The translations under genes and the position numbers were made by a program. A stretch of 28,112 nucleotides of DNA from Candidatus Micrarchaeota archaeon (GTDB lineage Archaea > Micrarchaeota > Micrarchaeia > Anstonellales > Bilamarchaeaceae). Location: NCBI GenBank assembly GCA_040754495.1, contig JBFMCO010000071.1, forward strand, positions 1 through 28,112, written 5' to 3'. Positions 3 to 23,745 of this stretch are shown piece by piece; position 1 is the stretch's first letter; every line of letters starts with the position of its first letter. Under the pieces are notes generated by a model that made no database searches, was not told where the DNA came from, and saw only the letters and a program-made list of their open reading frames with translations.

Positions 3-299
3 CTGAGGATAGACAAATACGAGCGCGAGGTCGCAATCTGGGACAACCAGCTGACCAAGCTCATCAAGGGCGTGAAGCCCATGGGCGTGATAGCGTACGC
101 CCAGACCACCGCTGTAGGCACGAGCAAGGAGGCGGCCGTCGCGTCAGCGAGGGCGCAGGCGAACGAGCTCCGCACGGTGCTCGCGAACGCGCTCAACGTG
201 GAGGTCGTGCTCCTTTCCGGCGACGAGATGCTGAAATGCTTCGAATGGGAGAAATTCTTCCCGACGACGACGCAGGAGCTCGAGGAGAGCGTGAGCTGA
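3..299 (+). CDS. 5'-truncated ORF; C-terminus of a protein resembling the N-terminal/accessory domain of VirB4/TrsE-type ATPases
   Basis: Frame open from base 3 (LRIDKYEREVAIWDNQLTKLIKG...ELEESVS*). Stop TGA abuts the ATG of the ATPase at 300. The pattern Y..T.A...EEA...A....EL...L....V.V..LSGDEML recalls VirB4 N-terminal regions; this is an impression, not a search result. Confidence 0.6.
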   Translation: MRIDKYEREVAIWDNQLTKLIKGVKPMGVIAYAQTTAVGTSKEAAVASARAQANELRTVLANALNVEVVLLSGDEMLKCFEWEKFFPTTTQELEESVS

Positions 300-1883
300 A
301 TGGCCATAAGCGGCAAGTTGAGGCTGGTCAAGCTTTCCAACTCCTCAATCTCCAAGCGCAACCTCCTGGTGCACCCGCCGGAGCCGCCGATGGAGGTGCT
401 TTTCGCAGACCCCACCAACTCGATTTTCATCGGCCGCACGAAGATATTCAGCGTCCCCTACTACTGGACATTCGAGAACGTGGCGAACCCGCACATCGCG
501 ATTGTGGGGATATCGGGCTCTGGAAAGTCCTACTTCATCAAGACATTCCTGCTGCGCTCGGCTTTCGTCTGGAACAGCAACGCCCTCATAATCGACTGGG
601 CGGGCGAGTACAAGGACTGGGTGAAGCAGAGCGGGGGCAAGATAGTGTCGCTCGGAAAGGGCTCGTACCTGAACCTGCTGGACCTGGGCGGCATGAAGCC
701 CTATGACCGCATCAAGCAGGTCATGAGGACCATGGAGCTCCTTACCGACATCCAGAACTACCCTGAGCAGAGGCGCCTCACCGAGCAGGCCATAGAGAAG
801 GTCTACATGGAGTCCAAGTTCAGGATGGACGCCCGCGAGCAGAAGGACGAGCTCGGCAAGCCTCTCGCGCCGCCCACGCTCAAGGACGTAGTCCGCGTGC
901 TCAGCGAGCAGTCTCAGGTCGGCACCTACGAGTTCCCGGCCGAGCTCGAGAACGCAATCTACAGGCTCAAGCAGTTCACGAAGCCCGGCGAAGACTTCTT
1001 CGCGCAGCAGAGCACTGTCAGCCTGGACGAGCTCATCAGCTCCGGCCTCGTGGACCTCGACCTCTCGGGACTGCCGGACGAGACCTCGCGCGCCCTTGCC
1101 GCACTCACTGCCCTCCAGTTCATCAAGGAGAAGATGCGCATCGAGGGCTGGAGCTACTCCAAGGGGCTCAAGCTGCTGATAGTCCTGGACGAGGCGTGGA
1201 AGATAGGCAAAGACGAGAACTCGGACGCGGTCATGATAGTCCGCGAGGGCCGCAAGTACAACTTCGCCATGATTATCGCGTCCCAGAACCCGACCGACAT
1301 CAGCGAGGCCATCTTCTCCAACGTCGGCACCACGTTCATACTGAAAGTGAAGTTCGAGAAGTTCCTGGACTACCTCCAGGGCTCGCTCAACTTCAGCAAC
1401 TACATGCGCGACGAGATAAGCCGGCTCGGCGTCGGGCAGTGCGCGGTCAACGTTGCGCTCACTCTTCCGACGCCTTATCCCTCCACCTTCCTGATAGAGA
1501 AGATAGAGGGAGAGGAGCCGACCAAGGAGTACTTCCTTGATCTGTCGGGCGTGCTCACTGACAAGCAGAGGAGGGATGTTTCGGTGTCGAGGAGCGTTTC
1601 GTTCCTGAAGGAGGATTTCAGAAGGAAGTTGAGGCAGTTCGGCCTGACCGACGAGAAGATAGAGGAGCTGACCAAGGTGTTCGAGAAGTCGAACCGGCGC
1701 ATGGACGTCGTCTCGTTCGTCATCCAGCTCGAGCGCGACGGCATAGCGAGGCGCAACATCAGCGACTTCCTGAAAGACGCGGGCATAGACGACATAACGA
1801 TAATCAACATCTTCGGCAAGGTGGACCTCAAGAAGAGCGGCGGCGTAGGCCGTGAGATAAGCCAGGTCGTCCTAGAGGAATGA
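300..1883 (+). CDS. VirB4/HerA-like (DUF87, FtsK-HerA superfamily) P-loop ATPase with ~115-aa helical C-terminal extension
   Basis: NPHIAIVGISGSGKS (Walker A), IIDWAGEY, LLIVLDEAW (Walker B), REGRKYNFAMIIASQNPTD (Arg-finger and SQ motif). No transmembrane segment. Confidence 0.9.
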   Translation: MAISGKLRLVKLSNSSISKRNLLVHPPEPPMEVLFADPTNSIFIGRTKIFSVPYYWTFENVANPHIAIVGISGSGKSYFIKTFLLRSAFVWNSNALIIDWAGEYKDWVKQSGGKIVSLGKGSYLNLLDLGGMKPYDRIKQVMRTMELLTDIQNYPEQRRLTEQAIEKVYMESKFRMDAREQKDELGKPLAPPTLKDVVRVLSEQSQVGTYEFPAELENAIYRLKQFTKPGEDFFAQQSTVSLDELISSGLVDLDLSGLPDETSRALAALTALQFIKEKMRIEGWSYSKGLKLLIVLDEAWKIGKDENSDAVMIVREGRKYNFAMIIASQNPTDISEAIFSNVGTTFILKVKFEKFLDYLQGSLNFSNYMRDEISRLGVGQCAVNVALTLPTPYPSTFLIEKIEGEEPTKEYFLDLSGVLTDKQRRDVSVSRSVSFLKEDFRRKLRQFGLTDEKIEELTKVFEKSNRRMDVVSFVIQLERDGIARRNISDFLKDAGIDDITIINIFGKVDLKKSGGVGREISQVVLEE

Positions 1884-2344
1884 ATATGAAAGTCTGCGTC
1901 TCGTGCCAGCAGGACGTGTCCGCGAAGAAGGCCATGCCGGTCAAGGAGGACCGCATCATAAAGGGCATCCGCGCTGCCAAGAAGCTCCTCGGGATAGCCC
2001 AGATGAACGAGCTTTTCGTGTGCGAGGAGTGCATGCAGAAGCACCTCGAGCGGAGGCGCTCGTTCGAGAAGACGATGCTTTTCGCCAGCGTATTCGCAGG
2101 CCTGCTCCTCGTGATAATCATCCTCGTCCCTCTGCTCTCAGGGCGCTTCGACCCGTGGGCCGTCGTGTCAGGCGTGATAGTCGCCCTGTTCATACTGACG
2201 CTGCCCGTGTTCAAGTACGCGCCTGCGGTAGAGGGCGTCAGCGCGAACGCGTTCAAGATGGCAGCCAAGCCCGCCGCTGCGCCGTCCGCAACCCCTGCCC
2301 AGCCGGCCGGAGAGGCCCAGAAAAAGAGGAAAAAGAAGAAATGA
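1880..2344 (+). CDS. Zn-ribbon membrane protein (CxxC...CxxC, 2 TM helices, poly-Lys tail)
   Basis: KVCVSCQ and VCEEC, two hydrophobic stretches, C-terminus KKRKKKK. ATGA overlap with the ATPase stop. Confidence 0.8.
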   Translation: MNMKVCVSCQQDVSAKKAMPVKEDRIIKGIRAAKKLLGIAQMNELFVCEECMQKHLERRRSFEKTMLFASVFAGLLLVIIILVPLLSGRFDPWAVVSGVIVALFILTLPVFKYAPAVEGVSANAFKMAAKPAAAPSATPAQPAGEAQKKRKKKK

Positions 2345-2353
2345 GGTGCAATT

Positions 2354-3151
2354 ATGCCGCTTCCCGCAAAAAAGACCGACAAGCCGTCTCCGGCCGCTTC
2401 CGCTCCCCAGCCTGCCGCCGCCCAGTCGACGAAGGAGGAGGCCCACCCGCCGCAGGTCGACGGCTTCAAGATAAAGGGCAGGCTGAAAGGGAAGCTCAAG
2501 GACCTTGCGGGGGTCCTTCGCTCGATATCATTCCTCGAGCTCGCGCCTGAAAAGGAAGTCCTGAACGTCATATACGTTGAGAGCAGGGACATAGACAAGA
2601 ACCCCTACCTCTTCTCCATACTGAAGATGAAGGAGGACGAGATAGAGGTCCTCTACACCATCCCGCCCGAAATCGGCCCGAAGAAGAGGCGCGTGGACGT
2701 CATCCGCTACCTGCTGAACATCCTGTCCCTCATCGAATCTTACTTCGAGGTGGACAACAAGACCGTCTACCAGCTCATAGAGAACTCGATAAAGGAGCTG
2801 GCCGGCTCGGTGACAATGGATTACAACAAGCTTTACACCTCCTACGACTCGCTCAAGAAGGAGGTCGACGATTACAAGAAGAAGATAGACCGGCTGACCG
2901 AGCAGAGCCAGGCACTGACCTCGTCCAACTACGAGCTCAAGACGCAGAACGACGAGATGAAGCTCAGGCTGCAGCAGCTCGAGGGCCTTTCGGACGATGC
3001 GCTCAAGGCGAAGCTGCAGGAATGGGTTTCGGAGCACAGCGGCACCATAAACATCACTGAGTTCAGCAAGCTCCACAAGGTGGCCGAGGCAAAGGTGGAG
3101 GAGATGCTGAACCGGCTCGTGAGCGAGGGTTATCTCGAAGTGGTCCAGTAG
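2354..3151 (+). CDS. Hypothetical protein: alpha/beta domain, coiled coil and C-terminal winged-helix-like domain
   Basis: Strong codon bias. Heptad-rich segment YNKLYTSYDSLKKEVDDYKKKIDRLTEQSQAL...LQQLE. C-terminal INITEFSKLHKVAEAKVEEMLNRLVSEGYLEV matches a wHTH pattern. Confidence 0.75.
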   Translation: MPLPAKKTDKPSPAASAPQPAAAQSTKEEAHPPQVDGFKIKGRLKGKLKDLAGVLRSISFLELAPEKEVLNVIYVESRDIDKNPYLFSILKMKEDEIEVLYTIPPEIGPKKRRVDVIRYLLNILSLIESYFEVDNKTVYQLIENSIKELAGSVTMDYNKLYTSYDSLKKEVDDYKKKIDRLTEQSQALTSSNYELKTQNDEMKLRLQQLEGLSDDALKAKLQEWVSEHSGTINITEFSKLHKVAEAKVEEMLNRLVSEGYLEVVQ

Positions 3152-3238
3152 GCTTAGATGGGGAACGGATGACGGCCCGGTATATGGGCCGGAATCCGGA
3201 CGGAAACCCCACTAAGAAGGGCGTAGAGGGTTTTCACA

Positions 3239-5806
3239 ATGGTCGAAATGGGCGCGAAGGTCAAGCGAAAAACGTACAAGTTCGAGCTCAAGAAGAAGTA
3301 CCAGTACGTGAGCCACTACAAGATAAAGCAGAGGCCGCCCATAGATAAGATAAAGGACAAGTTCCGGGAGCTCCTCTCCCCGAAAAAGGCCGAGAAGAAG
3401 GCAGAGCCGGCCGCCCTGCAGCAGCCGCCCAAGGGCGGATTCAACTTCCTCGTTTTCGGAGGCTTCATACTCATAGCGCTCATCCTGCTCGCCATAGCCT
3501 GGCTGTACCTGACAATCCAGGTCGTCCAGCCCGGCGCCGGCGTTTTCCAGCCGCAGGTGGAAAAATCTTCCATAGACAACACCATCGAGAACGGAGATAT
3601 CCTGACGACCGGATTGCGCGGCAGCACGAAGAACCTGGCGGCCGTGTTCGTGGACTACAATACCGTCAACCTGAAGAACTACACGGTCACGGTGACCACG
3701 TACGACACGAGGCTGCCATCCGAGGTATTCATACTCAACAGCGAGAGGTTCGAGGCCTCCACGTACCCGGATTTCATCCGCGTACTCAGGTCTAATTTGG
3801 CCAAGCGGAAGATACTTCTCAACGAGATAACAATCAAGCAGCTCGAGACGCTCCCCGAGGGCGCAGTCGTCATAGTGCCGAGCGGGGCGATCCCCAAGGA
3901 AATAATCGGCATAGACAGCCAGCTGACCATGAACGAGCTCTCTGACCGCGGCATAGTCCTCATATACCTGGGCCAGCCCTTCACCAAGATGCTGAACGGC
4001 ACCCTGGTCTCATTCACGCCGCGCGACACCCTGAAGGACGTCCCGGCCACCTTCGACGAGAACGCCCAGCTCGAGTCCGAGCCCGGATTCAGCCTTTTCC
4101 AGCCGCTCTACCGCGTTGCTCCGCTCGGCGGCTGGAAGGGGGCGATAGCATACGGCTCGGTGAGCATCACAACCCGTGGCAACGGCGCCTTCGTTTTCGT
4201 CCCGCAGACGCTTGATGGCGGCTGGAGGGGCGACTACGAGGCCGCTGCGGACGACATCTCCCGCATCGTGTTCGAGACCCCCTGGGCGCAGCCGAACTCC
4301 GAGCCGAAGGTCTACGAGTTCACGAACCAGACCAATTACAGCGGGAGGCAGTATTTCTTCTCGAACGAGTTCGATTCTCCGAACGTCACGACCAAGGTGG
4401 AATTCATCGGCTACCCGCCGGCCTCGAACATCTCCATCCGGGAGACGCTCTTTGCCCAGCTCGAGAAGAGGAGGAACAACACCCTCCTCATAGAGCAGGG
4501 GGGCCGCGTCGTGTCGGCCAACATCACGAACCAGCCTGTCAGGATAAACGCCCAGCTCCGCGAGCCGGTAGCCGCGCAGCCGAGCATGTTCCTCTCGGTG
4601 GTCGACAACAAGGGCAATGAGATACAGACATTCCCGCAGGGCAACGTGAACGTCCAGGCCGACCAGAGCTTCGACGTTCTCATCTACCTCGACCGCGGGG
4701 AATACATCGTCAAGCTCGTCGATGACGAGTCCAACGTCTATGGCGAGACGTACATGAAGGTCGTGTCCATAGACATCAACTACCTCGGGCAGGACGTCCA
4801 GAAGCGCTCGACGTACAAGTTCTCGGTAACGATGGATGGCTCCCCGCGCACCCTCAGCGAGGTCACGGTGAGGGTGGATAACGGCCAGTACGGGACGCAG
4901 AAATTCACGAACGTCGACAACATGAGGGTGGACCTCAGCCAGTACGTGGGCAACGAGCCCCTTCCGCTGGGCAACCACACCTTCGAGTTCACGGCAGGCG
5001 CGCTCAAGGTCAACATACCGGTGGTGCACACCCGGCCCAAGACCATCTTCGATGAGCCCATCTTCTGGATAACCCTGATACTCACGGGCGGAATCGTGGG
5101 CGTGGGAGCCATCTTCGCAAGGGCGGAGGAGGTCTTCTTCGCGATTGACATCCCTGACTTCCCGCCTGTCGCCCGCACCAAGATTCCGCTGTCGCCGGAC
5201 GTGGTCCTGAGCATCTTCGACAAGGTGAACGAGACCTACCGCTGGCAGACTACGCCGCTTACGGCCGCGGAGATGAAGAACGGCTTCAAGGACATATTCG
5301 TCCAGGGCAAGCCCATTTACATAACCGACTTCAACGTGGAGTACCTGCTGGTCGAGCTCGAGAAGAAGGGCCGCGTGAAGGAGTCGCTCGGCTACTTCGG
5401 CATGAGCGACTGGGAGCAAAAAAGCGGGCACACGATCGAGTACCTGGCGCTCATGCGCAGGCTGCGCGACATATGCGTGAACAACGCCATCCCGTTCACC
5501 GGCCTCGGGGAGTCAGAGGAGGCCGACAGCGTGATAACCGTGGTGGGCCAGCAGATGTCCATACACTTCTACGAGAGGCGCATAGACGTCGGGAAGCTCC
5601 TTGGCCGCGTCATACCGACGATAGGCCATGGCATCGCCATAATCATGTTCAAGAGCCCGCCGGACAAGGAATACTTCCAGACCATGATGAACTCCTCGCC
5701 CACAATCGGCCCGCTGATTGTGAAGATGGAGGCCGACAGCAGCTCCCTTCTCCTCCTCACGGCTGACGAACTCGAGAAGATGATGCTCGAGTTCAAGAGC
5801 ATGTAG
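3239..5806 (+). CDS. Large 2-TM membrane protein with ~530-aa extracytoplasmic region and ~225-aa cytoplasmic C-terminal region
   Basis: 855-aa ORF with typical codon bias. TM1 FLVFGGFILIALILLAIAWLYL, TM2 IFWITLILTGGIVGVGAIFA. Many N-x-S/T sequons between the two TMs. Confidence 0.8.
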   Translation: MVEMGAKVKRKTYKFELKKKYQYVSHYKIKQRPPIDKIKDKFRELLSPKKAEKKAEPAALQQPPKGGFNFLVFGGFILIALILLAIAWLYLTIQVVQPGAGVFQPQVEKSSIDNTIENGDILTTGLRGSTKNLAAVFVDYNTVNLKNYTVTVTTYDTRLPSEVFILNSERFEASTYPDFIRVLRSNLAKRKILLNEITIKQLETLPEGAVVIVPSGAIPKEIIGIDSQLTMNELSDRGIVLIYLGQPFTKMLNGTLVSFTPRDTLKDVPATFDENAQLESEPGFSLFQPLYRVAPLGGWKGAIAYGSVSITTRGNGAFVFVPQTLDGGWRGDYEAAADDISRIVFETPWAQPNSEPKVYEFTNQTNYSGRQYFFSNEFDSPNVTTKVEFIGYPPASNISIRETLFAQLEKRRNNTLLIEQGGRVVSANITNQPVRINAQLREPVAAQPSMFLSVVDNKGNEIQTFPQGNVNVQADQSFDVLIYLDRGEYIVKLVDDESNVYGETYMKVVSIDINYLGQDVQKRSTYKFSVTMDGSPRTLSEVTVRVDNGQYGTQKFTNVDNMRVDLSQYVGNEPLPLGNHTFEFTAGALKVNIPVVHTRPKTIFDEPIFWITLILTGGIVGVGAIFARAEEVFFAIDIPDFPPVARTKIPLSPDVVLSIFDKVNETYRWQTTPLTAAEMKNGFKDIFVQGKPIYITDFNVEYLLVELEKKGRVKESLGYFGMSDWEQKSGHTIEYLALMRRLRDICVNNAIPFTGLGESEEADSVITVVGQQMSIHFYERRIDVGKLLGRVIPTIGHGIAIIMFKSPPDKEYFQTMMNSSPTIGPLIVKMEADSSSLLLLTADELEKMMLEFKSM

Positions 5807-8318: not shown

Positions 8319-9515
8319 TCAGCCGGTCCCGTTGGTCGCGTTCTGCCCCTCGCTCTCGTTCTTGCCGTAGTTCTCGAAATAGTTCAGCAGCTTCTGGGGG
8401 TCCACCTCGAGGTCGCTCTCGTTCTTCGGGGACGCGGCCTGCTGGCAGTTTTCGAGCTTGCTCTGGTCCTTGACGCCCTCGCAGTAAGAGCTGTCCTTGT
8501 AAGCGCCGGCAAGCTCTATGTAGCAGTCGTCCTTGAACGATGCGTCCCTAATTGCCCCGCATATGGTCTGGTCCTTCGTAAGGGGGACGAGGGCGACCAG
8601 GCAGCGGTCCCTCCTGGAGCCGGCAAGGTCGCACAGGTCCTTCCTCTTGAGGATGAGCGCAAGGTCGGAGACGCATTTTTCGCGCTCCTCGCCCTGCCTT
8701 TCCGTGTGGCAGCCGGCGAGCTTTATCTGCTGCTCCCTCTCCTTCCTGAAGACCTCCACCGCGTCGCCGCTGAGGTTGGCCGGCGGCGTAATCGACGGCA
8801 CCTGCTCCGTCCTGAAAAGGCTGACCCTCACGGTCCGGTTGTGCTCCATCCCGGATTTGTCGGCATACTCGAGGCTGGTCTCGTATGGCAGGCCGATTTC
8901 GGAGATGCATGCGCTGAGCCAGAACGTCTTTGGCGAGTCCGAGCTGATGCTGAACCTGCCCGCCTCCTCGAGCGAGAGGTTGCTGTAGTCTATGACATAG
9001 GATATGCGCCTGCACGGGATGGTGCCGACCGTCGCGTTCTCGACGGAAGGTCCGACGCTCAGGTAGCCCCTTGTCATGAGGTACTGTATGTTGCCCTTCG
9101 CCCTGTCCACGTTGGTGTCGTTGAAGAACCTGGACTGCACGAACTGGATGTAATTCTGCATCTCGGTGTCGTTCGCTATCGAGGAGCACGTCTCGTTGAC
9201 CGGGTATTTTATGCAGAGTATGGTGTCGTTGCCAAGAAGGTAGACGCGCTTGGTGGACAGCGGGTTCTGGACCTCGGCCATCATCGCCCCTCCCTTCCTG
9301 ATCAGGGAATATGTGGTCCGGTATCCGTCCGATACCTCGGTATATGAGTAGGCGTAATCAGCGAGTCCCTTGCCGAATCCGGAGCTGTTGAGCAGGAGCT
9401 CTTCCGCCTCGCTGCTGTCAGGGGCGGCCGGTGCCGGGGCGGTCGTGAAAGCTATGTAGAGAGCCGCCGCTACGAGAATCGCTGTAATCAGGAGCAATTT
9501 GTGCTGGTATTCCAT
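8319..9515 (-). CDS. Membrane-anchored surface protein with beta-rich middle domain and C-terminal Cys-rich helical repeats
   Basis: N-terminal TM LLLITAILVAAALYIAF. Repeats EKCVSDLA..KRKDLCDL / RDRCLVAL..KDQTICGAI / KDDCYIELA..KDSSYCEGV. GAGGTG upstream of the ATG at 9515. Confidence 0.8.
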   Translation of the reverse strand: MEYQHKLLLITAILVAAALYIAFTTAPAPAAPDSSEAEELLLNSSGFGKGLADYAYSYTEVSDGYRTTYSLIRKGGAMMAEVQNPLSTKRVYLLGNDTILCIKYPVNETCSSIANDTEMQNYIQFVQSRFFNDTNVDRAKGNIQYLMTRGYLSVGPSVENATVGTIPCRRISYVIDYSNLSLEEAGRFSISSDSPKTFWLSACISEIGLPYETSLEYADKSGMEHNRTVRVSLFRTEQVPSITPPANLSGDAVEVFRKEREQQIKLAGCHTERQGEEREKCVSDLALILKRKDLCDLAGSRRDRCLVALVPLTKDQTICGAIRDASFKDDCYIELAGAYKDSSYCEGVKDQSKLENCQQAASPKNESDLEVDPQKLLNYFENYGKNESEGQNATNGTG

Positions 9516-9615
9516 CTGCACACCTCTCAATCATTTCGGGCGTGCCGGTTTTATAGCTTTGCGTGTGTTCCGGCCGCGACCGCAACCCTTAAATCAGCGC
9601 CGCAGATTTCCCATC

Positions 9616-10753: not shown

Positions 10754-11749
10754 ATGACGCCGCCACGGATGGTGCCGCAAGCTCCCGAGCCAGCCGAAAC
10801 GCAGAGGCAGGCGGTCCCGGTCCGCATTCAGCAACCCGGCCGCGAGAGGCCGGCGCGAATCATCCGCAACGAGCAGGAGGCGCGGCTGCACATGGCCGAG
10901 CAATCACGGCACTTTCTAAATCTCATCGAAGAGGCGAGGCGGCAGAGCACCCTGGCGGATGTGGTTGTAAGCGTCAGGCGTGCCGGTGGGACGGCCTACC
11001 GCGTGCTCCTGCCCCAATTGCGCAGGCTCGAGATGTTGTATGAGGAAACAGCGCGCGTCCCTCCGGGCAGGGCGCGTGAGATAGCCCTGGAGGAGACGGC
11101 CTTCCTGACAGGGGGGTATCTCGGCGATGCCCTTTACGCCCGCTTCACCGAAACGCCACCGTATGTCAGCTTCGTGCCGCGCGAAGTTCTTGAGGTGATG
11201 ACCGACGCATACGGCTGTTTGTGGCGCGGGCAGTATATTCCGGATACCAACCATCTCCTTATGCATCCCTACGTGCGAAGCGAGGGCGAGATGCGGCTGA
11301 CTATCGTCCACGAGCTTCTTCACTATGCATCATGGCTGGGAGGCGGCGCTACCGAATACAGATGGGCTGGCAATGACGGAAGGCCGGTTCAGCGGAACAT
11401 CCCATGGCTGGACGAAGGCCTGACCGAACTCCATGCGCAGCAGATGCTCCGTGGGCGCGGCTTCGGATTGGATGTCGTCAGCTATGCCCCGGAAACAATC
11501 GTGGGCATCTACCTCCAACAGATCGTCGGCGCAGACATTCTCAGGCGCGCCTACCTGAGCGGGGATTTCCAGGAGGCCGGCCGGATTGTGGACTCCAGGC
11601 TCGGCGCAGGGTCTTTCGAGCGCCTGGCCGGCTACGGGCGGGGGGCCGAGGCGCTCTCCTTCCTGGAGCAGAGGCTCGATTCAGCGCGCATCGACCGCTC
11701 TTCGTGGGAAAGCGACCCAGTGGTCGTGCTCGCAAGGAGCCGGATGTGA
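10754..11749 (+). CDS. Gluzincin-like metallopeptidase domain protein
   Basis: TIVHELLHYAS (HExxH) followed about 20 aa later by PWLDEGLTELHA (third-ligand Glu motif). Start codon uncertain. Confidence 0.7.
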   Translation: MTPPRMVPQAPEPAETQRQAVPVRIQQPGRERPARIIRNEQEARLHMAEQSRHFLNLIEEARRQSTLADVVVSVRRAGGTAYRVLLPQLRRLEMLYEETARVPPGRAREIALEETAFLTGGYLGDALYARFTETPPYVSFVPREVLEVMTDAYGCLWRGQYIPDTNHLLMHPYVRSEGEMRLTIVHELLHYASWLGGGATEYRWAGNDGRPVQRNIPWLDEGLTELHAQQMLRGRGFGLDVVSYAPETIVGIYLQQIVGADILRRAYLSGDFQEAGRIVDSRLGAGSFERLAGYGRGAEALSFLEQRLDSARIDRSSWESDPVVVLARSRM

Positions 11750-16873: not shown

Positions 16874-17305
16874 TCAGCATGCTTTCCCATCGAGCTTCTG
16901 GACGATGGCGAGCGCAAGGGCCGCTATCGATACCACGCCCAGAAGGGGGCGCAGCGGGTCGAACCATTCGAAGAGGGCAGCATACCCGAGGAGCATCACG
17001 AGGAGCTTGTTGCATATTGGGCATGCGAAGGCAAGCAGGCCGAAGAAGGTGCCCCCGGCTGCCTTGCCATCCGCCGCGCAGGCATTGGTCGGAAGCGCAA
17101 GATACGCCCCTCCCAAAAGAGCGGTCGTGGCCAGGAAGAAGAAGTCCAGGGGCGAGGCCGGCATCATCCTCATGAAGATGGGGTTCGGTATCGTTGCCGT
17201 CACAAGGCCGAATAGCGCCAGGATGCCGATTGAATAAAGCAGCAGTCTAATCATCGTCCGCGCTTCGGAGAATGCGGCCGCGGCTTTCTGGAGTATGCGT
17301 TGCAT
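16874..17305 (-). CDS. MerT-like membrane protein with intramembrane CPIC (paralog 2)
   Basis: IPNPIFMRM, LLAFACPICNKLLVMLLG, DPLRPLL, C-terminal KAC. The start could be 17254. Confidence 0.75.
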   Translation of the reverse strand: MQRILQKAAAAFSEARTMIRLLLYSIGILALFGLVTATIPNPIFMRMMPASPLDFFFLATTALLGGAYLALPTNACAADGKAAGGTFFGLLAFACPICNKLLVMLLGYAALFEWFDPLRPLLGVVSIAALALAIVQKLDGKAC

Positions 17306-17311
17306 CCCTGC

Positions 17312-17590
17312 TCACCGTTCCTCGAACCGGATTTCTTTGCCGCCTATCCTGCCGGGCATGGCGCTGAATGCTATCCTTCCTTTTTTCTCCGCCGCCCCGG
17401 CCTTCCGCCTCTCTCCGAGGTACTCCACCAGATATGGCCCGAAAGTGAGCAGCAGCATGGCGGCAACGGCCGGAACGAAAAATGGCGATGCGGCCATGAA
17501 CGACCCTGCTCCCCCCAGCAGCATTAGCACCAGCACAAGTACCACCAGGTCCTGCTTCAGGCGCTGCTTAAGAGGCTTTTTGGCTTCCAT
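17312..17590 (-). CDS. Small 2-TM hypothetical protein
   Basis: GAGGTG SD before the ATG at 17590; two hydrophobic helices; operon-packed. Confidence 0.6.
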   Translation of the reverse strand: MEAKKPLKQRLKQDLVVLVLVLMLLGGAGSFMAASPFFVPAVAAMLLLTFGPYLVEYLGERRKAGAAEKKGRIAFSAMPGRIGGKEIRFEER

Positions 17591-18281
17591 TGCCGCCACC
17601 TCCGCTTTCAAGCGCGTTCAGCATCGGGACTGTGAACATCCCGGCTGCGATTCCTGCGATTGCCCCGGTTATCCACCTTATTGTATTGGTGCTTTCCTGC
17701 AGGCCGAAAGGATTCAGCCAGTAGAAAGAGGGATTGTCGAAAATGCCAGCGAGCATCTGCGTCGTGCCGTCAATCGCCAGCGGCAGCAGCCCCAGAACAA
17801 GCCAGAGAACGTGCGGGACCTTCGTCTGCTTCAGCCCGAACACAATGGGATACGCCATCATCGTAAGCATCCAGGGTATGTATATCGCGTAATCCCTGGT
17901 GTCGTTCGCGAACTTGTAGCCCGTCATCCCGTTCCTCACGACCCTCTCCGCCTTGTTCCTCCCTATCTGGTCCTGCTTGTATTCGGCGAATATGCCGTTA
18001 TAGCGCGGGTCGCCATCGCCCGTATAGAGCGTGCTTATGTTTGCTTCCGCTTCCCGGCCGCGGACTATGCAATCCTCTATGCCGAGGCTGCCGCTGGCAT
18101 CCTTGAAGACGCATTGCGAGCGGTAAATCCACTGGTGGTCATACGAGTGCACGTTATAGAGGAACGCCCCGGCCTCCTCGAAACCCGCGAATATGAGGAA
18201 CGGCGGGGCGAGTATCGAGAGGTTGAGAATGAGAAAAAAACCCACGACCAGATAATAAACCGGCGAAGAGGGCAGGGCCAT
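17568..18281 (-). CDS. DUF2085-like membrane protein
   Basis: DHQWIYRS (compare CHQxxxRS), LLPLAIDGTTQ, STNTIRWITGAIAG. Confidence 0.75.
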   Translation of the reverse strand: MALPSSPVYYLVVGFFLILNLSILAPPFLIFAGFEEAGAFLYNVHSYDHQWIYRSQCVFKDASGSLGIEDCIVRGREAEANISTLYTGDGDPRYNGIFAEYKQDQIGRNKAERVVRNGMTGYKFANDTRDYAIYIPWMLTMMAYPIVFGLKQTKVPHVLWLVLGLLPLAIDGTTQMLAGIFDNPSFYWLNPFGLQESTNTIRWITGAIAGIAAGMFTVPMLNALESGGGGNGSQKAS

Positions 18282-19901
18282 CTAATCCACCTCGAAGCTC
18301 GTCATCATGCCGGAGCCAAGATGCTCCGCGATGTGGCAGTGCATCATCCATTCCCCTTCGTTAGGGAAGTATGTGAGCAGCTCGGCAGTTTTCCCGGACG
18401 GTATGTTCACCGTGTCCTTCCACACCAGATTCCCGTTCTTCTGGCCGTCCATGCTGAGCACGAGGAACTGCGCCCCGTGCAGGTGGAGCGCGTGCTGCAT
18501 CGGATGGGCTGAATTCCCGTCGTTCTCAATCCTTATCTTCACGACCTTGCCTTTCGGTATGGCCGCCGCTGCATCCATGTTTTTCTTGCCGCTCATCCTG
18601 TCCTTTATGACCCAGGTTGTCCTGTTGCTTGTGGAGAAGCTGTTCATGGCGAACATCGTGTCCTCCCACTCAATCCCTTCTTCGATGTGGGCCATCATGT
18701 CCCCCATCCCTCCGCTTTCCATGCCCATTCCCTCAATGTCTACCGTGAGGACATAGTCGAAATCCGCCGGATTGTCGAAATATTCCTCATAAGCGCCGAT
18801 TTCCGAGATTATGTCGCTGTTATTCTTGAGAGCATAGAACCCCCCTTCACCCTCTCCATCCCCGCCCGATTCTTTCACGACTACTCTGCCCAGCGTCTGC
18901 TCGCCGAGCGGGTTCCTGTTTTTGATGGCGTATGTGCTAGGCTTGTCGAATTCAACCTCGACGATGAGCCTTTCCGAAGGCGAAATGATGACGGAATCAG
19001 CTAAATACTCCCTCTCCGCCTTCCCGCCGTCGCCTCCCACCACCTTCATGCGCATCCCATCTATCGAAAGATTGAACGTGCGGACGTTCGCCGCATCCAG
19101 TATGAAAAACCTCACTCTCTCCCCGTTCTCAACTTCGAGGGAGTAATCTGTCCTGCCATTCACGAGCATGACGTTGCCGAACCTTCCCATCAGGGCGAAA
19201 TTGGTTTCGTTGCTGTCGAATGGATAGACGTCCCCGCCGGATAGCAGGATGTCGTCCAGGGCAAGCACCTCCTCCCGGTCGACTGCATTGTAATATCCGC
19301 TTTCGTTTGGCTCCACCAGGATGAATCCGTACAGGCCAAGCTCCTGCTGGAGGTCCTCCCTCACATGCGGATGGTACCAGTACGCGCCTTCATCAGGGAA
19401 CTCCAGCCGGTAAAGGAAGCTTTCTCCGGGCATTACGGCCCGCTGCGTGACATCCGGAACGCCGTCGTACCTGTTCTGCAGCCTGAGCCCGTGCCAATGG
19501 ACGGTCGTGTTTGAGTCCAGCGAGTTGGTGAAATTGACGAAAACCGTGCTTCCCTGCCTCACACGGATGACTGGTCCCGGGATTTGGCCGTTATAAGCGA
19601 ATGCCCGTATCATCTTCCCGTCTATCTCCTTGGCAACCGGCCCGGCTTCGAGCGCGAAGACCGAGCCGTTCTCAAGCTCGTAAACCCCCTGCCCCGCTGC
19701 GGCCTCCAGACCGGTCGTATCCCTGTTTATCGGCTCGAAATCCCGGCCGCCCATCATGCCGCCGGCCATGCCGTTTCCTGCACCCGGCATCCCTCCCCCC
19801 GAGGCCAGCCCTGCGCCTCCCATCATCCCGCTTCTCTGTTGCGCTGAGCATCCGGCGGAAATAATTGTGGCCAGTAAAACAATCGCGAAAACGCCTCTCA
19901 T
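18282..19901 (-). CDS. Secreted three-domain multicopper oxidase (CueO/laccase-like), Met-rich
   Basis: Cu motifs TVHWHG, YWYHPH, HALHLHG, MHCHIAEHLGSGMM; signal peptide ending ISAGC; GGMMGG-rich N-terminus. Confidence 0.95.
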   Translation of the reverse strand: MRGVFAIVLLATIISAGCSAQQRSGMMGGAGLASGGGMPGAGNGMAGGMMGGRDFEPINRDTTGLEAAAGQGVYELENGSVFALEAGPVAKEIDGKMIRAFAYNGQIPGPVIRVRQGSTVFVNFTNSLDSNTTVHWHGLRLQNRYDGVPDVTQRAVMPGESFLYRLEFPDEGAYWYHPHVREDLQQELGLYGFILVEPNESGYYNAVDREEVLALDDILLSGGDVYPFDSNETNFALMGRFGNVMLVNGRTDYSLEVENGERVRFFILDAANVRTFNLSIDGMRMKVVGGDGGKAEREYLADSVIISPSERLIVEVEFDKPSTYAIKNRNPLGEQTLGRVVVKESGGDGEGEGGFYALKNNSDIISEIGAYEEYFDNPADFDYVLTVDIEGMGMESGGMGDMMAHIEEGIEWEDTMFAMNSFSTSNRTTWVIKDRMSGKKNMDAAAAIPKGKVVKIRIENDGNSAHPMQHALHLHGAQFLVLSMDGQKNGNLVWKDTVNIPSGKTAELLTYFPNEGEWMMHCHIAEHLGSGMMTSFEVD

Positions 19902-19905
19902 CTCA

Positions 19906-20355
19906 TCACTCGTACCTTATCTCGATAACGTCTCCGTCCGCCATCACATAATGCTCGAAATCGCCGTTTTCCCTTCCGTTGACGAGCATCTTCACGCCCT
20001 TTCCGCCCGCATTGCAGTAGTCGAAGACGCACTCGCTGTTGAATCTCTCCCCCCACACCTCGTTCATGAAATAGCCGACCGTCAGCTGGTTCTTGGGTAT
20101 GGTGGCCTGGCTGAACTCGAAATGCACAGTCCCATCGCCCTCCTCATGGGTGTGCACCGGGAGATGGCGCCCGCCGCCAAGGCCGAGGTTGTCCGGAACC
20201 CCGACCTCTTTCCCATCGATAAAAATGGCGATTCTGGAGTGCCAGTGCAGCGGCCCGCCGACCGAGCCCTCGGCATACGCGTTCCTGCTCCCAAGAAGGA
20301 GGTACGCGGACACGGCGAGCGCAAGGAGGATGAATGCGTATACGTATCCTTTCAT
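19906..20355 (-). CDS. Membrane-anchored His-motif protein (HWH...HTH...H)
   Basis: N-terminal TM; GPLHWHS, PVHTHEEGDGTVHFE, CVFDYC; operon-packed between copA and the oxidase. Confidence 0.75.
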   Translation of the reverse strand: MKGYVYAFILLALAVSAYLLLGSRNAYAEGSVGGPLHWHSRIAIFIDGKEVGVPDNLGLGGGRHLPVHTHEEGDGTVHFEFSQATIPKNQLTVGYFMNEVWGERFNSECVFDYCNAGGKGVKMLVNGRENGDFEHYVMADGDVIEIRYE

Positions 20356-20358
20356 AGC

Positions 20359-22818
20359 TCACAACCTCGGCTTCCAGCCTCTCATCAGCAGGCTGTTCGA
20401 GACCACGCTCACCGAGCTGAACGCCATCGCAGCTCCTGCTATCACCGGACTTAGCAGGAAACCTGAGACCGGGAACAGGATGCCCATGGCAACCGGTATT
20501 CCTACAGTGTTGTATAGGAAGGCCCAGAAGAGGTTCTCCTTGATTTTCCTCATGGTATACCTGCTGAGCTGTATGGCGGATACGATGTCGCGCAGGTCGC
20601 TTTTCACCAGGACTATGCCCCCGCTCTCGATGGCCACGTCAGTACCGGCGCCAATCGCTATCCCCACATCCGCCTGCGCCAGTGCAGGAGCGTCATTTAT
20701 GCCATCGCCGACGAACGCCACCTTGCTGCCTTCGTCCTGGAGCCTCTTCACCTCGTTGGCCTTGTCCTCCGGCATCACGTGCGCTAGCACCCGGTCGATG
20801 CCAGCCTGCTTCGCTATCGCCTGCGCGGTCCTCTCGTTGTCGCCGGTTATCATGGCAGTCTCATAGCCCATTTTGTGGAGCCTGTCGACGGCTTCTCTCG
20901 AATGCTCTTTTATGGTGTCCGCTATCGCTATGAGCCCGGCTATCCTATCCTCCGCAGCGACTATCACGACCGTCTTGCCCTCTTTCTCGAGCCCGTGCAT
21001 CCTCTTTATAGCCCTGTCATCGACTTTCACGCCTTCCTTCTGCATCAGTGCCACGTTGCCGACAAGCACCCTCACGTTGCCGAAGACGGCGGATATGCCG
21101 TGGCCCGGAATCGCCTTGAAATCCCCGGGCTCCCCTATCCGGAGTTTCCTCTCCTTCGCCTTTTTCACGACCGCCTGGGCAAGATGGTGCTCGGAGTTGT
21201 TCTCCGCAGAGGCGGCTATCCGGAGGAGCTCATCATCCTTCATCCCGAAGGCAATCATCTCGGTGACGATCGCCTCCCCTTTTGTTATGGTGCCAGTTTT
21301 GTCGAACACCACTATCTTCACCTGATGCAGGAGCTCAAGCGCCTCGGCATTCTTTATAAGGATGCCGTTCTCGGCTCCCTTGCCCGTCCCTATCATGACG
21401 GCTGTGGGCGTGGCGAGGCCCATCGCGCACGGGCATGCGATGATAAGGGTCGATACGAGGATGGTAAGGGCAAAGAGGAATATCTGGCCCGCAAGGAAAT
21501 ACCAGTATACGAACGCCGCCAGGGCGAGGATTATTACGCCCTGAACGAAATAGCCGGCCACGGTATCCACAAGGCGCTGAATCGGAGCCTTGCTGCCCTG
21601 CGCGTCCTCGACCAGCTTTATTATCTGGGCGAGCATGGTGTCGCTCCCTACCTTGGTGGCCCTGAACCTGAAAGAGCCCGTCTTGTTTATGGTCGCTCCG
21701 ATGACAATGTCCCCCTTGGTCTTATGCACCGGCAGGCTCTCCCCGGTTATCATGCTCTCATCGACGCTGCTGGCTCCATCAGCGACCACGCCGTCCACAG
21801 GAATCTTGTCCCCGGGCTTGACGATGATTATGTCGCCAACCACGACGTCCTTTATGGGTATCTCCATCTCCTTCCCGTCCCTTATGACCAGGGCGGTCTT
21901 GGGCTGAAGCCCTATCAGCCGTTTTATCGCCTCGGAAGTCTTCCCCTTGGCCACCGCCTCCAGGTACTTGCCGAGGACTATGAACGTCAGGAGGAGGGCC
22001 GCGGTCTCGTAGTATATGCTTCCCTCGATGAACCCGAAACCCACCAGAACGCTGTACGCATAAGCGGTCCCCACGCCAAGAGCCACCAGGCTGTCCATGC
22101 CCGGCATGCGGTTGAGCAGGCCCCTGAATCCGCGGGTGAAGAAATCCCTGTTCAGGTACATCACAGGGGTAGAAAGAAAGAACTGGAGCGCGGCCATGTT
22201 CTTCATGAGGAAATCAGGGTATTCGAGCGCGACGATGCCCTTGAGCATCTCCGGCAGCGCGAGGAGGAGGACCGGGACGGTGAGGAGCGCGGACCAGAGC
22301 ACCCTGCCTTTCAGCTCCTTCACCTCTTTTTCCCGGGCGAGCTTCTCCTTGTCTATCTCCTCGCCGAGCTCCATCAGCTCTGCGTCGTATCCCGCGTCCA
22401 CGATGGCTTTCCTGATGCGGGTGAAACCGGTTTTCCCCTTGTCATATTCTATGACGGCCTTCTCCAGGCCGAAATTCAGCTCGAACTTCTCCACTCCCGG
22501 AGCCTTCCTGAGCGCCTTCTCCACTATCCCGGCGCAGTGCAGGGAGTCCATGCCTATGACATGGAGGTACATCCTGTCCTTCCCTTTCTTCGGAGCCTCC
22601 TCCCCGATGTCCGCCCCGTAGCCAAGGCCTTCTATGGACTCCTTGAAATTACCCGGCCCGACTTTGGCTTCATCGTACTCGACGGTGGCCCTGCTGGTCG
22701 CGTAATTGACGTTCGCGCTCCGGACGCCATCGAGCTTCTTGAGCCTCCTCTCTATGTTGAGGGCGCAGGATGCGCAGTGCATCCCGCTTACCGGGATAGT
22801 CATCTTCATCATCATCAC
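20359..22818 (-). CDS. copA: Cu(I)-translocating P1B-1 ATPase with two N-terminal HMA domains
   Basis: [42 protein letters not shown] and MAFSSVSV (Cu+ ligand signature). Confidence 0.96.
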
Positions 22819-23745
22819 CTACGGATATACCAGGATGCCCTTGGGCCCATAAACCATCATCAGGGAAAGCGCTATGGCGAACGCGGCGCATGTTGCGGCG
22901 AACCCGGCGAAGCGGGTGCTGAATGCCTCCTTCGGGGCCGCCCCGCTCTCCCTGTACATCATGTAGCTGAGCCCGCCGAGGACGAAAGCGCATATCCCGA
23001 ACAGGATATACAGGAACAGCACCAGGTTCTCCCGCAGCATCATCACCGAGGTCATTGCCCCCATGATGCCGGCCATCAGGCCCGCCATCACTCCTTCCAT
23101 AGTGCCCATGACGCCGCAGCACCTGCCGAGGTTGCCGCCAAGGGCGATGCCGGCGGCCATCCCTACCGTGGAGCCTATGAACATGCCGTTCGTAGCGCCT
23201 ATCAGCGCCCCGACCATGAAGCCGCTTATCATGCCCATGGTCATGCCGACCATCATGCCGTTGTTGCAGGATATCCCTTTGCCGTAGCTGCTCATGTGCA
23301 GGTACGAGAATACCGTCATGACGGAGGTCAGGATGGCCAGGGCAAGGAGGGGCATGTACGCCCCGAGCGATGATACCGAAGGGAGCGCCGCGGCGTATCC
23401 AAGGCCGCCCAGTACTACAAGGGCCGCGGTGGAGCCAAGGGCGTAATTCACGAGCTTCGATTCCACCTCGACATGCGGCTCTCCGGCTATGATGGACGAA
23501 AGGTACGTCTTCACCCTTGCCGGGTCCCCCCGCTGGCCGGCATCGCCTGCCTTTTCATTGAATCCTTTCTCGGCAAGCTGCCTCCTCAGCGTCTCGAGGG
23601 TGCCTTCCTCGCAGGAAAGCGCAACAACGCCGCTCTTCGCGTCTATCTCTTTGACTTTGGCGCCGTTCTGCTCGGCCACCCTCTCGATGAGCTTCTCGCA
23701 CGAGCCGCATGTCATGCCGTTCAGCCGGAGCGTGTAATCATTCAC
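22819..23745 (-). CDS. HMA domain fused to a Met/Gly-rich ~7-TM domain
   Basis: GMTCGSC N-terminus; TMs GMMVGMTMGMISGFM and CCGVMGTMEGVMAGLMAGIMGAMTSVMM; stop abuts the copA start. Confidence 0.82.
   Translation of the reverse strand: MNDYTLRLNGMTCGSCEKLIERVAEQNGAKVKEIDAKSGVVALSCEEGTLETLRRQLAEKGFNEKAGDAGQRGDPARVKTYLSSIIAGEPHVEVESKLVNYALGSTAALVVLGGLGYAAALPSVSSLGAYMPLLALAILTSVMTVFSYLHMSSYGKGISCNNGMMVGMTMGMISGFMVGALIGATNGMFIGSTVGMAAGIALGGNLGRCCGVMGTMEGVMAGLMAGIMGAMTSVMMLRENLVLFLYILFGICAFVLGGLSYMMYRESGAAPKEAFSTRFAGFAATCAAFAIALSLMMVYGPKGILVYP

Follow-up and report, generated by a model that had tools for sequence, protein, structure and literature searches.

Two chromosomal systems derived from type IV secretion systems (T4SS), Ced of the Sulfolobales (CedA, CedA1, CedA2, CedB and CedD/CedE; PMC9905601, PMC11868833) and Ted of the Thermoproteales, are the closest known systems to the operon described here, which stands at positions 3-5806 of a 28,112-nucleotide stretch of DNA from a Micrarchaeota archaeon (hereafter, the window). 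Ced, the closest studied relative, imports DNA (PMC9905601, PMC11868833), and the minimal archaeal T4SS or conjugation set is made up of VirB4, VirB6 and VirB2 (PMC9905601). The window is the entire contig C71 of a metagenome-assembled genome (MAG) of 1.63 Mb in 72 contigs, which is 80% complete with a contamination estimate of 1.5%, and the operon comprises five co-oriented open reading frames (ORFs) on the plus strand, whose protein families are named F3, F2, F6, F4 and F5 in that order. We consider it likely that this operon is the conserved motor-and-accessory part of a chromosomal, apparently vertically inherited, T4SS-derived (Ced/Ted-like) envelope machine of the Micrarchaeota.

Two further systems are relevant for comparison. 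In Patescibacteria (candidate phyla radiation, CPR), a chromosomal T4SS has been described with VirB4 in 2,417 of 3,035 genomes, forming a lineage-specific clade, with VirB2-like pilins and mostly without a relaxase, and it has been reported to be essential for epibiotic growth in Saccharimonadia (PMC12102498). In nanohaloarchaea, giant SPEARE proteins combine Ig-like repeats, a transmembrane (TM) segment and a VirB4/TraG-like ATPase domain, and a role in host contact has been proposed for them (PMC10266531). Full-text searches of the literature returned no account of a Micrarchaeota system resembling T4SS or Ced. In particular, the paper on the co-culture of Ca. Micrarchaeum harzensis notes that transporters are few and that the organism probably depends on direct contact between cells, names no mechanism and mentions no T4SS- or Ced-like system (PMC8975820).

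Comparison with described systems

The Micrarchaeota machine shares with Ced and Ted a chromosomal location, a T4SS origin and the lack of a relaxase and a coupling protein, as well as a motor composed of a TM anchor, a domain resembling the N-terminal domain (NTD) of VirB4 and a HerA/VirB4-like ATPase, together with a VirB2-like pilin and putative VirB6-like channel paralogs. It further shares with Ced the presence of two paralogous motor modules per genome, comparable to CedB and CedD. Unlike in Ced and Ted, the motor is divided between two genes (three in some families), the putative channel is multiplied six-fold, with three such arrays in the genome of the window, and the carrier is a DPANN phylum. 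No link to a Ups-type system or to DNA damage is known for the Micrarchaeota machine, in contrast to Ced.

With regard to VirB3/VirB4 of bacterial T4SS, taken from plasmid R388 (TrwM/TrwK; 7o41, 7o42, 8rtd), the modelled soluble domain of F3 superposes on TrwK and the N-terminal TM hairpin of F3 resembles VirB3 fused or adjacent to VirB4, whereas, unlike in R388 VirB4, the NTD and the ATPase are on separate polypeptides and sequence identity is 9-26%. No homologues of VirB8, VirB9, VirB10, VirD4 or a relaxase were recognised by the searches run. The Micrarchaeota and Patescibacteria systems both belong to ultra-small, host-dependent cells and both show VirB4 in most genomes of the lineage as a lineage-specific clade, together with VirB2-like pilins and mostly without a relaxase; the latter differs in being bacterial, derived from MPF-FATA (MPF, mating-pair formation), with an unsplit VirB4 and other accessory genes, and there is no evidence of common descent. 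As with SPEARE, a DPANN archaeon here couples an extracellular Ig-like, adhesin-like part through the membrane to a VirB4-like motor; unlike in SPEARE, which is one giant polypeptide, F5 and the ATPase are separate genes, and the likeness is one of description.

VirB4 is split into an anchor and a motor

Full-length F3 has approximately 270 amino acids (aa) and consists of an N-terminal hairpin of two TM helices followed by a soluble domain resembling the VirB4 NTD. The fragment in the window is 83% identical to residues 173-269 of a same-genus ortholog, and it was the structure of this ortholog that was predicted, since sequence searches with F3 came back empty (57 homologs in the alignment; mean predicted local distance difference test score, pLDDT, 87.7). 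When this model was searched with Foldseek, the top 12 matches were all TrwK/VirB4 of R388. VIA-align placed residues 71-270 of the model onto residues 219-383 of TrwK, with a Z score of 12.3 for 8rtd_g (151 aligned residues, root-mean-square deviation 2.9 Å) and of 9.0-9.6 over 161-164 residues for other TrwK chains (7o42_A: Z 9.4, 164 aa). In a search of 48,161 representative chains that was independent of Foldseek, TrwK ranked first (Z 9.4, 164 residues), and all other top rows covered only a helical hairpin of about 55 residues. TrwK/VirB4 NTD 219-383 was the sole full-domain match. Of the VirB4 NTD, no more than the second half can be recognised: in the predicted structure, the soluble domain of F3 has the fold of this half. 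An NCBIfam scan of 57 F3 proteins gave no consistent family.

The product of the second gene, F2, has no hydrophobic or TM segment and is soluble. Its Pfam matches are DUF87 (1.7e-15, the top one), AAA_10 (2.3e-13) and P-loop_TraG (4.3e-9), and its NCBIfam scores are 69 bits for CedD, 68.7 for CedB, 65 for VirB4_plasma, 61 for CD1110, 44.5 for TraC, 44 for TIGR00929 and 37-46 for the HerA models. Its alignment with the C-terminal domain of VirB4 (4ag5, positions 59-330) is continuous, as is that with TraC (63-375). A tblastn search of 72,556 plasmids yielded 235 records, for the most part F-type TraC over residues 63-375. Walker B is followed by the invariant R315-E-G-R-K-Y320 and Q329 (REGRKY and ASQ motifs). 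As predicted from its sequence, F2 is a catalytically intact VirB4/CedB-class P-loop ATPase. A search for homologs of the ATPase returned only Micrarchaeota orthologs, annotated as 'ATP-binding', 'DUF87' or 'HerA-like', which could not serve as outgroups. The C-terminal helical extension, F2c, is a separate gene in some loci (Table 1), which were counted in a set of 40 loci.

An F2 ortholog of 1047 aa in a genome of family f11 (G006; L068:4995-8135, minus strand) is interrupted just after the P-loop by an intein with a LAGLIDADG homing endonuclease (Pfam Intein_splicing 1.7e-20, LAGLIDADG_3 8.7e-24), and the same interrupted layout was seen in two database representatives, P0122 and P0123, of 1026 and 1196 aa. 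Inteins typically occupy conserved sites of conserved genes.

In order to connect F3 and F2 with known proteins beyond the fold, fused relatives were informative. An exhaustive phmmer search over 1.84 billion representatives gave 1,861 matches, among them proteins of 689-913 aa in which the initial ~250 residues fit the F3 profile and the following ~360 fit F2. Such fused relatives include P0152, P0162, P0165, P0173, P0191 and P0203, in which the F3 profile matched with E values of 1e-3 to 3.5e-12, followed by the F2 profile. All but P0203 were scanned against NCBIfam, and the best model of each of these five was CedB, with 94-144 bits, which is also under the 700-bit CedB cut-off, and with coverage of up to positions 13-587 of 590; the label 'CedB-like' as used here refers to this NCBIfam model and not to bona fide CedB, CedD or TedB sequences. 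P0165 (locus L094) directly follows two genes carrying the Pfam domain CedA1, and at a further locus (L095) the profile of F1, the candidate channel family described below, matches with 5e-7 the 287-aa protein encoded next to a CedB-like ATPase, on its upstream side. Because the fused relatives join F3-like and F2-like parts, F3 and F2 are tied to CedB independently of the fold prediction. The architecture of CedB (TM anchor, VirB4-NTD-like domain, HerA/VirB4-like ATPase) is provided by F3 and F2 jointly, as two genes in the window. Since related archaea have both parts as one polypeptide resembling CedB end to end, the VirB4 of the window is split into an anchor (F3) and a motor (F2). The preliminary description of this DNA, made from the letters of the sequence, had called the first gene VirB4-N-like and the second a soluble VirB4/HerA-like ATPase; the fold and the fused relatives support the former, and the profile scores and neighbours place the latter on the VirB4/CedB-like side.

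A compact relative lies amid archaeal housekeeping genes of another archaeal MAG (GCA_027363435.1; L100, 5834-10570), with a pilin (F8 profile, 3e-16), one F1 (4e-46), F3 (6.5e-16) and a 373-aa ATPase followed by genes of 225, 195 and 69 aa. About 70 of the 150 best database representatives fall in the short-ATPase group of this locus, and the split motor is thus present in ATPase groups well beyond the ortholog clade of the window.

Conservation across Micrarchaeota and association with pilin and channel genes

The ATPase was matched (E ≤ 1e-10) in 137 of 151 sampled genomes of the phylum, with orthologs that are 52-91% identical and mostly full length, and many of these genomes carry further, weaker matches. 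F5 was found in 134 of the 151 with the same family pattern as the ATPase: it occurs in all genomes of families f1-f11, save one f9 genome, is present in f14, f15 and f17, and absent from f12, f16, f18 and f20. Both counts include one unpublished genome, G029, without which they are 136/150 and 133/150; G029 contributed no sequence to any other part of the analysis. A motif-pattern scan of species-representative genomes gave 547 stretches encoding relatives, of which the best 80 all come from Micrarchaeota MAGs. Furthermore, the order F3-F2-(F2c)-F6-F4-F5 was kept in 48 of 48 Micrarchaeota loci from at least 14 families, so the neighbours of the ATPase are conserved in relatives.

A co-directional cluster of approximately 17 kb has the block at its end in families f9, f10 and f11: F15 is followed by between one and three genes for F8, six paralogs of F1, two of F3, then F2, F2c as a gene of its own, F6, F4 and F5. 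In f14, f15 and f17 the F8 genes stand directly in front of F3. F8 carries a signal peptide as well as a pair of hydrophobic helices that enclose a basic loop, and corresponds to a VirB2-type pilin: 13 of 18 members matched Pfam T4SS_pilin (best 8.3e-7) and 12 of 18 TrbC/VirB2, and the best PDB sequence match was the R388 pilin TrwL (E 0.0065). The F1 profile had no VirB6 sequence match and no informative homolog in the PDB. The preliminary description took the operon for a distinct membrane system, a view that does not hold: since other Micrarchaeota families have VirB2-type pilin genes and CedA/VirB6-like genes directly adjoining it, the operon is part of a Ced/T4SS-like machine and not a separate system.

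In the genome of the window, the corresponding genes are on other contigs, with F8 copies at C46:49266-49640 and C5:22116-22370, F15 on C6, and three six-gene F1 arrays at C1:92-7893, C31:34530-41875 and C37:1025-8122, as opposed to the single array of the f9-f11 clusters. Each of the three arrays may belong to a motor module of its own, or the bin may combine more than one strain. Thus, the earlier statement that no pilin is visible is correct for the window but not for the genome. A second motor module at C32:44352-51684 (L005:6353-13685) consists of F1, F3, a 39%-identical F2 paralog and an F4 paralog, flanked by genes for thioredoxin and purD. The NCBIfam scores of this F2 paralog are 94.7 bits for CedB and 85 for CD1110-VirB4. 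The F5 paralog of the module (634 aa) lies on another contig (C53:2646-4550; hhalign probability 99.6%). A gene of 927 aa on the opposite strand between F3 and the ATPase on C32 was considered as an F5 relative and rejected (hhalign 0.2%). With regard to the relaxase and coupling protein that had been noted as missing, neither VirD4 (PF02534) nor a relaxase (PF03432), the only two families searched, was matched in the 80% complete genome, and the window has none either.

Phylogeny of the ATPase

Trees of the ATPase were computed with FastTree (130 rows) and with IQ-TREE (49 rows, LG+C20 PMSF, FtsK outgroup). In the best IQ-TREE tree, one branch (SH-like approximate likelihood ratio test, SH-aLRT, 90) joins the references for bacterial VirB4 with the clade of fused CedB-like proteins and with a clade of 32 rows (SH-aLRT 96) that contains the ATPase family of the window and its paralog, and the HerA of the same genome falls outside, as does an odd ATPase encoded on C14. 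Deep nodes are weak in these trees, the deep branches of the IQ-TREE tree are long, and TraC, TraD and FtsK are on very long branches. Since the tree leaves the choice between VirB4 and HerA unsettled, the assignment to the VirB4 side relies on architecture and neighbourhood. This agrees with the earlier classing of CedB and CedD in the HerA clade, despite their VirB4-like N-terminal domains (PMC11868833).

The genuine HerA of this genome (C31:21269-22780) scored 147-154 bits with the HerA models, as against 37-46 for the window ATPase, of which these models (NF040819 and NF040937; cut-offs 800-970) cover only the C-terminal part. Furthermore, with Walker A starting at residue 70, F2 has too little sequence ahead of this motif to accommodate a HAS-barrel N-terminal domain. 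The preliminary description had proposed checking whether the ATPase groups with HerA: profile scores and the best tree place it apart from HerA, and the topology test reported below leaves the grouping unrejected. The ATPase on C14 (C14:15153-16874; 573 aa) has a P-loop and weak CedD-, VirB4- and TraD-like matches.

The partner proteins F6, F4 and F5

F6 has a cytoplasmic CxxC...CxxC domain, a hairpin of two TM segments (67-85 and 99-117), an Ala/Pro-rich stretch and a KKRKKKK tail. Of the 48 Micrarchaeota loci, 46 have it at this position and in two it was undetected, and no Pfam or NCBIfam family matched it above cut-off. It had been described as a Zn-ribbon protein with two TM segments, and both the CxxC pairs and the TM segments are there; the four cysteines, however, are not kept across the family, ligands being lost in several orthologs.

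F4 is cytoplasmic, with a basic low-complexity N-terminus, a conserved alpha/beta region, a coiled coil (~146-215) and a C-terminal winged helix (216-265), in agreement with its earlier description as a coiled-coil/winged-helix protein. Its profile found no informative homolog in the PDB, and by sequence its winged helix is matched best by that of CdvB, a protein-binding one (2xvc, E 0.0011). Clusters containing F4 in a protein atlas come from Microcaldota (= Micrarchaeota) only, and an F4 paralog follows the paralogous ATPase on C32. Winged-helix-like domains and poly-basic tails had been taken to suggest nucleic-acid handling. Neither feature is specific, and with the F4 winged helix closest to a protein-binding one the argument is weak. 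Basic tails beside TM helices are expected from the positive-inside rule.

F5, the 855-aa protein, is bitopic, with TM segments at 71-89 and 608-626, as had been read from the sequence. Its model (pLDDT 86.1) predicts, in order, a basic cytoplasmic N-terminal tail, the first TM segment, an extracellular beta-sandwich, a flavodoxin-like domain, two immunoglobulin (Ig)/fibronectin type III (FnIII)-like sandwiches, the second TM segment and a cytoplasmic domain. In a wide VIA search with the model, residues 161-348 matched the GH42-trimerisation/ThuA-like fold (Z 8.7-11.4), residues 412-598 macroglobulin (MG) and FnIII domains (Z 8-9.5) and residues 650-724 the YceH winged helix (Z 8.1), and Foldseek matched the model to the MG domains of A2ML1 with E 4e-8. 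The extracellular region is the least conserved (mean identity 17-31%) and fast-evolving, whereas the cytoplasmic C-terminal domain is the most conserved (34-44%) and holds all residues invariant in the family, namely D637, W669, P673, N699 and R743. No Pfam or NCBIfam family matched F5, its profile found no informative homolog in the PDB, and a protein-atlas search with the C-terminal domain gave sub-threshold leads only (0.80-0.85).

Alternative explanations

Several results weigh against the assignment to a Ced/Ted-like machine. The machine is known from genes alone; F6, F4 and F5 are without counterpart in any described T4SS, Ced or Ted system; and the F1 paralogs are candidate VirB6/CedA-like polytopic channel proteins. 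Direct hidden Markov model and sequence searches with F3, the PDB included, gave no informative homolog, and its link with VirB4 comes from a predicted structure, with Z scores of 9-12 that are little above a helical-hairpin background of about 8-9. F2 lies far under the curated cut-offs of CedB (NF041017; 700), TIGR00929 (643), CD1110 (325), VirB4_plasma (590) and TraC (567). The profile of its family had its best PDB sequence matches in solved HerA structures, with 3e-15 but over two short stretches only, ahead of solved VirB4 with 5e-10, and an approximately unbiased (AU) test did not reject a tree in which the clade of the window was forced together with HerA (difference in log-likelihood 4.9, p 0.29). 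These two last results, the rank of DUF87 ('HerA central domain') as top Pfam match and the former placement of CedB and CedD themselves in the HerA clade would also fit a HerA-type module for DNA repair, chromosome handling or defence, whose resemblance to VirB4 is superficial. We regard this as very improbable, given that F2 has no HAS barrel, that no NurA, Mre11 or Rad50 is nearby, that the genome has a separate genuine HerA, that F3, the obligate partner, is predicted to fold like the VirB4 NTD and forms one chain with the ATPase in CedB-like relatives, and that in other families pilin genes and genes for polytopic membrane proteins directly adjoin the operon.

Mobile elements are the usual carriers of conjugation machinery, a CedB-like relative (L095) adjoins an integrase, and the plasmid matches of F2 are to conjugative TraC, all of which could point to a decaying integrated conjugative element or a plasmid remnant. 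This has hardly any probability left and was rejected on the grounds of conserved flanks, even composition and a synteny that is fixed in most families of the phylum: the family repeatedly shows purB upstream and housekeeping genes downstream, neither an integrase nor a relaxase nor a repeat boundary is present, orthologs that are 52-91% identical in most families with fixed gene order are the opposite of a patchy mobile element, and one ortholog carries an intein in its P-loop, as is typical of conserved genes. An explanation that we consider unlikely, but by a good measure less so than these, is that the VirB4-like motor only assembles a VirB2-type pilus for attachment to host or sister cells, with no substrate passing and with F5 as a co-adhesin or pilus base. 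Pilin genes do head the cluster in f9-f11, f14, f15 and f17, VirB4 drives pilus biogenesis in bacterial T4SS (PMC12102498), neither coupling protein nor relaxase was found in this genome with the two families searched, and F5 has adhesin-like Ig/FnIII domains in its model. However, six F1 paralogs, two motor modules per genome and conserved cytoplasmic winged-helix proteins exceed the apparent needs of a pilus, and the closest studied relatives, Ced, import DNA (PMC9905601, PMC11868833).

Proposed mode of action and implications

In the Ced/Ted-like machine that we favour, F3 would tether a hexamer of F2 beneath a channel built from F1 paralogs, and ATP hydrolysis would power pilin extraction or pilus growth, the passage of a macromolecule, or both. 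F5 would span the membrane with a fast-evolving adhesin-like part outside and a strongly conserved winged-helix/alpha-beta domain inside, and would probably couple outside events, such as contact with another cell, to the motor. F4 and F6 could be lineage-specific adaptors at the cytoplasmic face. As to substrate and direction, DNA uptake or exchange as in Ced can be put forward tentatively, and the exchange of some other cargo with the host is a rather doubtful possibility. A more specific proposal, and one that we think will probably turn out otherwise, is that the operon is the cytoplasmic and contact-sensing half of a host-contact translocon present in most of the phylum, a domesticated conjugation machine importing host macromolecules or building blocks (DNA, nucleotides, lipids, proteins), with F5 as a receptor gating the split VirB4 motor.

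Such a host-contact translocon, if true, would be the archaeal counterpart of the essential Patescibacteria T4SS, and the parallel with these ultra-small bacteria suggests convergent use of conjugation machinery by episymbionts. For the problem of how DPANN archaea come by compounds that they are unable to synthesise, this conserved machine gives candidates for a motor, a pilin and a channel, along with three lineage-specific partners. The Ced/Ted-like assignment would extend archaeal domesticated conjugation machinery from two Thermoproteota orders, with Ced and Ted, to a DPANN phylum. That VirB4 occurs naturally divided into anchor, motor and tail offers material for working out how VirB4 domains cooperate, and the proteins are concrete targets for cryo-tomography, proteomics and heterologous biochemistry.

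Layout of the operon and neighbouring genes

The five co-oriented genes of the preliminary description, their coordinates (Table 1) and their junctions were confirmed from the DNA. The TGA of F3 (297-299) directly abuts the ATG of F2 at 300 (0 nucleotides, nt), F2 and F6 overlap by 4 nt in an ATGA (1880-1883), and 9 nt separate F6 from F4 and 87 nt F4 from F5. As all five ORFs are conserved at the protein level in every related locus checked, they are genuine genes and not chance ORFs of a sequence with 59% guanine plus cytosine (GC).

Table 1. Coordinates of the genes of the operon and of features within them, as positions in the window.
Feature	Position	Strand	Remarks
F3 fragment (gene 1)	3-299	+	C-terminal 98 aa; open at 5' end, cut by contig end
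F2 ATPase (gene 2)	300-1883	+	527 aa
Walker A (P-loop) of F2, G70-I-S-G-S-G-K-S77	507-530	+	G70, I71, G73, G75, K76 and S77 invariant in 40 orthologs/paralogs
Walker B of F2, V-L-D297-E298	1182-1193	+	V295, D297 and E298 invariant in 40 orthologs/paralogs
F2c, C-terminal helical extension of ATPase (residues ~410-527)	1527-1880	+	separate ~100-aa gene in 16/40 loci, mainly f9-f11
F6 small membrane protein	1880-2344	+	154 aa
F4 coiled-coil/winged-helix protein	2354-3151	+	265 aa
F5 protein with two TM segments	3239-5806	+	855 aa
F5 extracellular region (residues ~97-606)	3527-5056	+	predicted beta-sandwich, flavodoxin-like alpha/beta (161-348), two Ig/FnIII-like sandwiches (412-598)
F5 cytoplasmic C-terminal domain (residues 627-855)	5117-5803	+	predicted winged helix (650-724) and alpha/beta domain

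As the window is a whole contig, the sequence upstream of it, which the preliminary description had asked for, was located elsewhere in the assembly: the missing 138 N-terminal aa of F3, with the two TM helices, sit behind purB (adenylosuccinate lyase) on the 2.5-kb contig C34, whose end abuts the start of the window with about 100 nt unassembled in between. The arrangement purB-F3-F2-F6-F4-F5 is identical in same-genus genomes; therefore, the operon in this lineage has five genes and is chromosomal. The organism is, as had been allowed for, a DPANN archaeon. In line with the chromosomal location, which had also been suspected, the operon is followed by genes for TFE-alpha, a DUF460 protein, a glycosyltransferase, eIF2-gamma, a protein resembling DsbA, a multicopper oxidase and a Cu-ATPase, and GC composition is even along the window (55-63%).

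The gap ahead of F5 (3152-3238), the sole sizeable one in the operon, contains a GGCCC-GGTATAT-GGGCC hairpin with a TATA-like motif in the loop, approximately 55 nt upstream of the F5 start, which may be an internal promoter or a processing site. Further downstream, conserved ORFs without a Pfam family were observed at 8319-9530, 10754-11749, 17295-18512 and 22819-23745. On the minus strand at 18282-22818, the 539-aa multicopper oxidase and an 819-aa heavy-metal P-type ATPase, which has HMA domains, are probably a copper-resistance pair.

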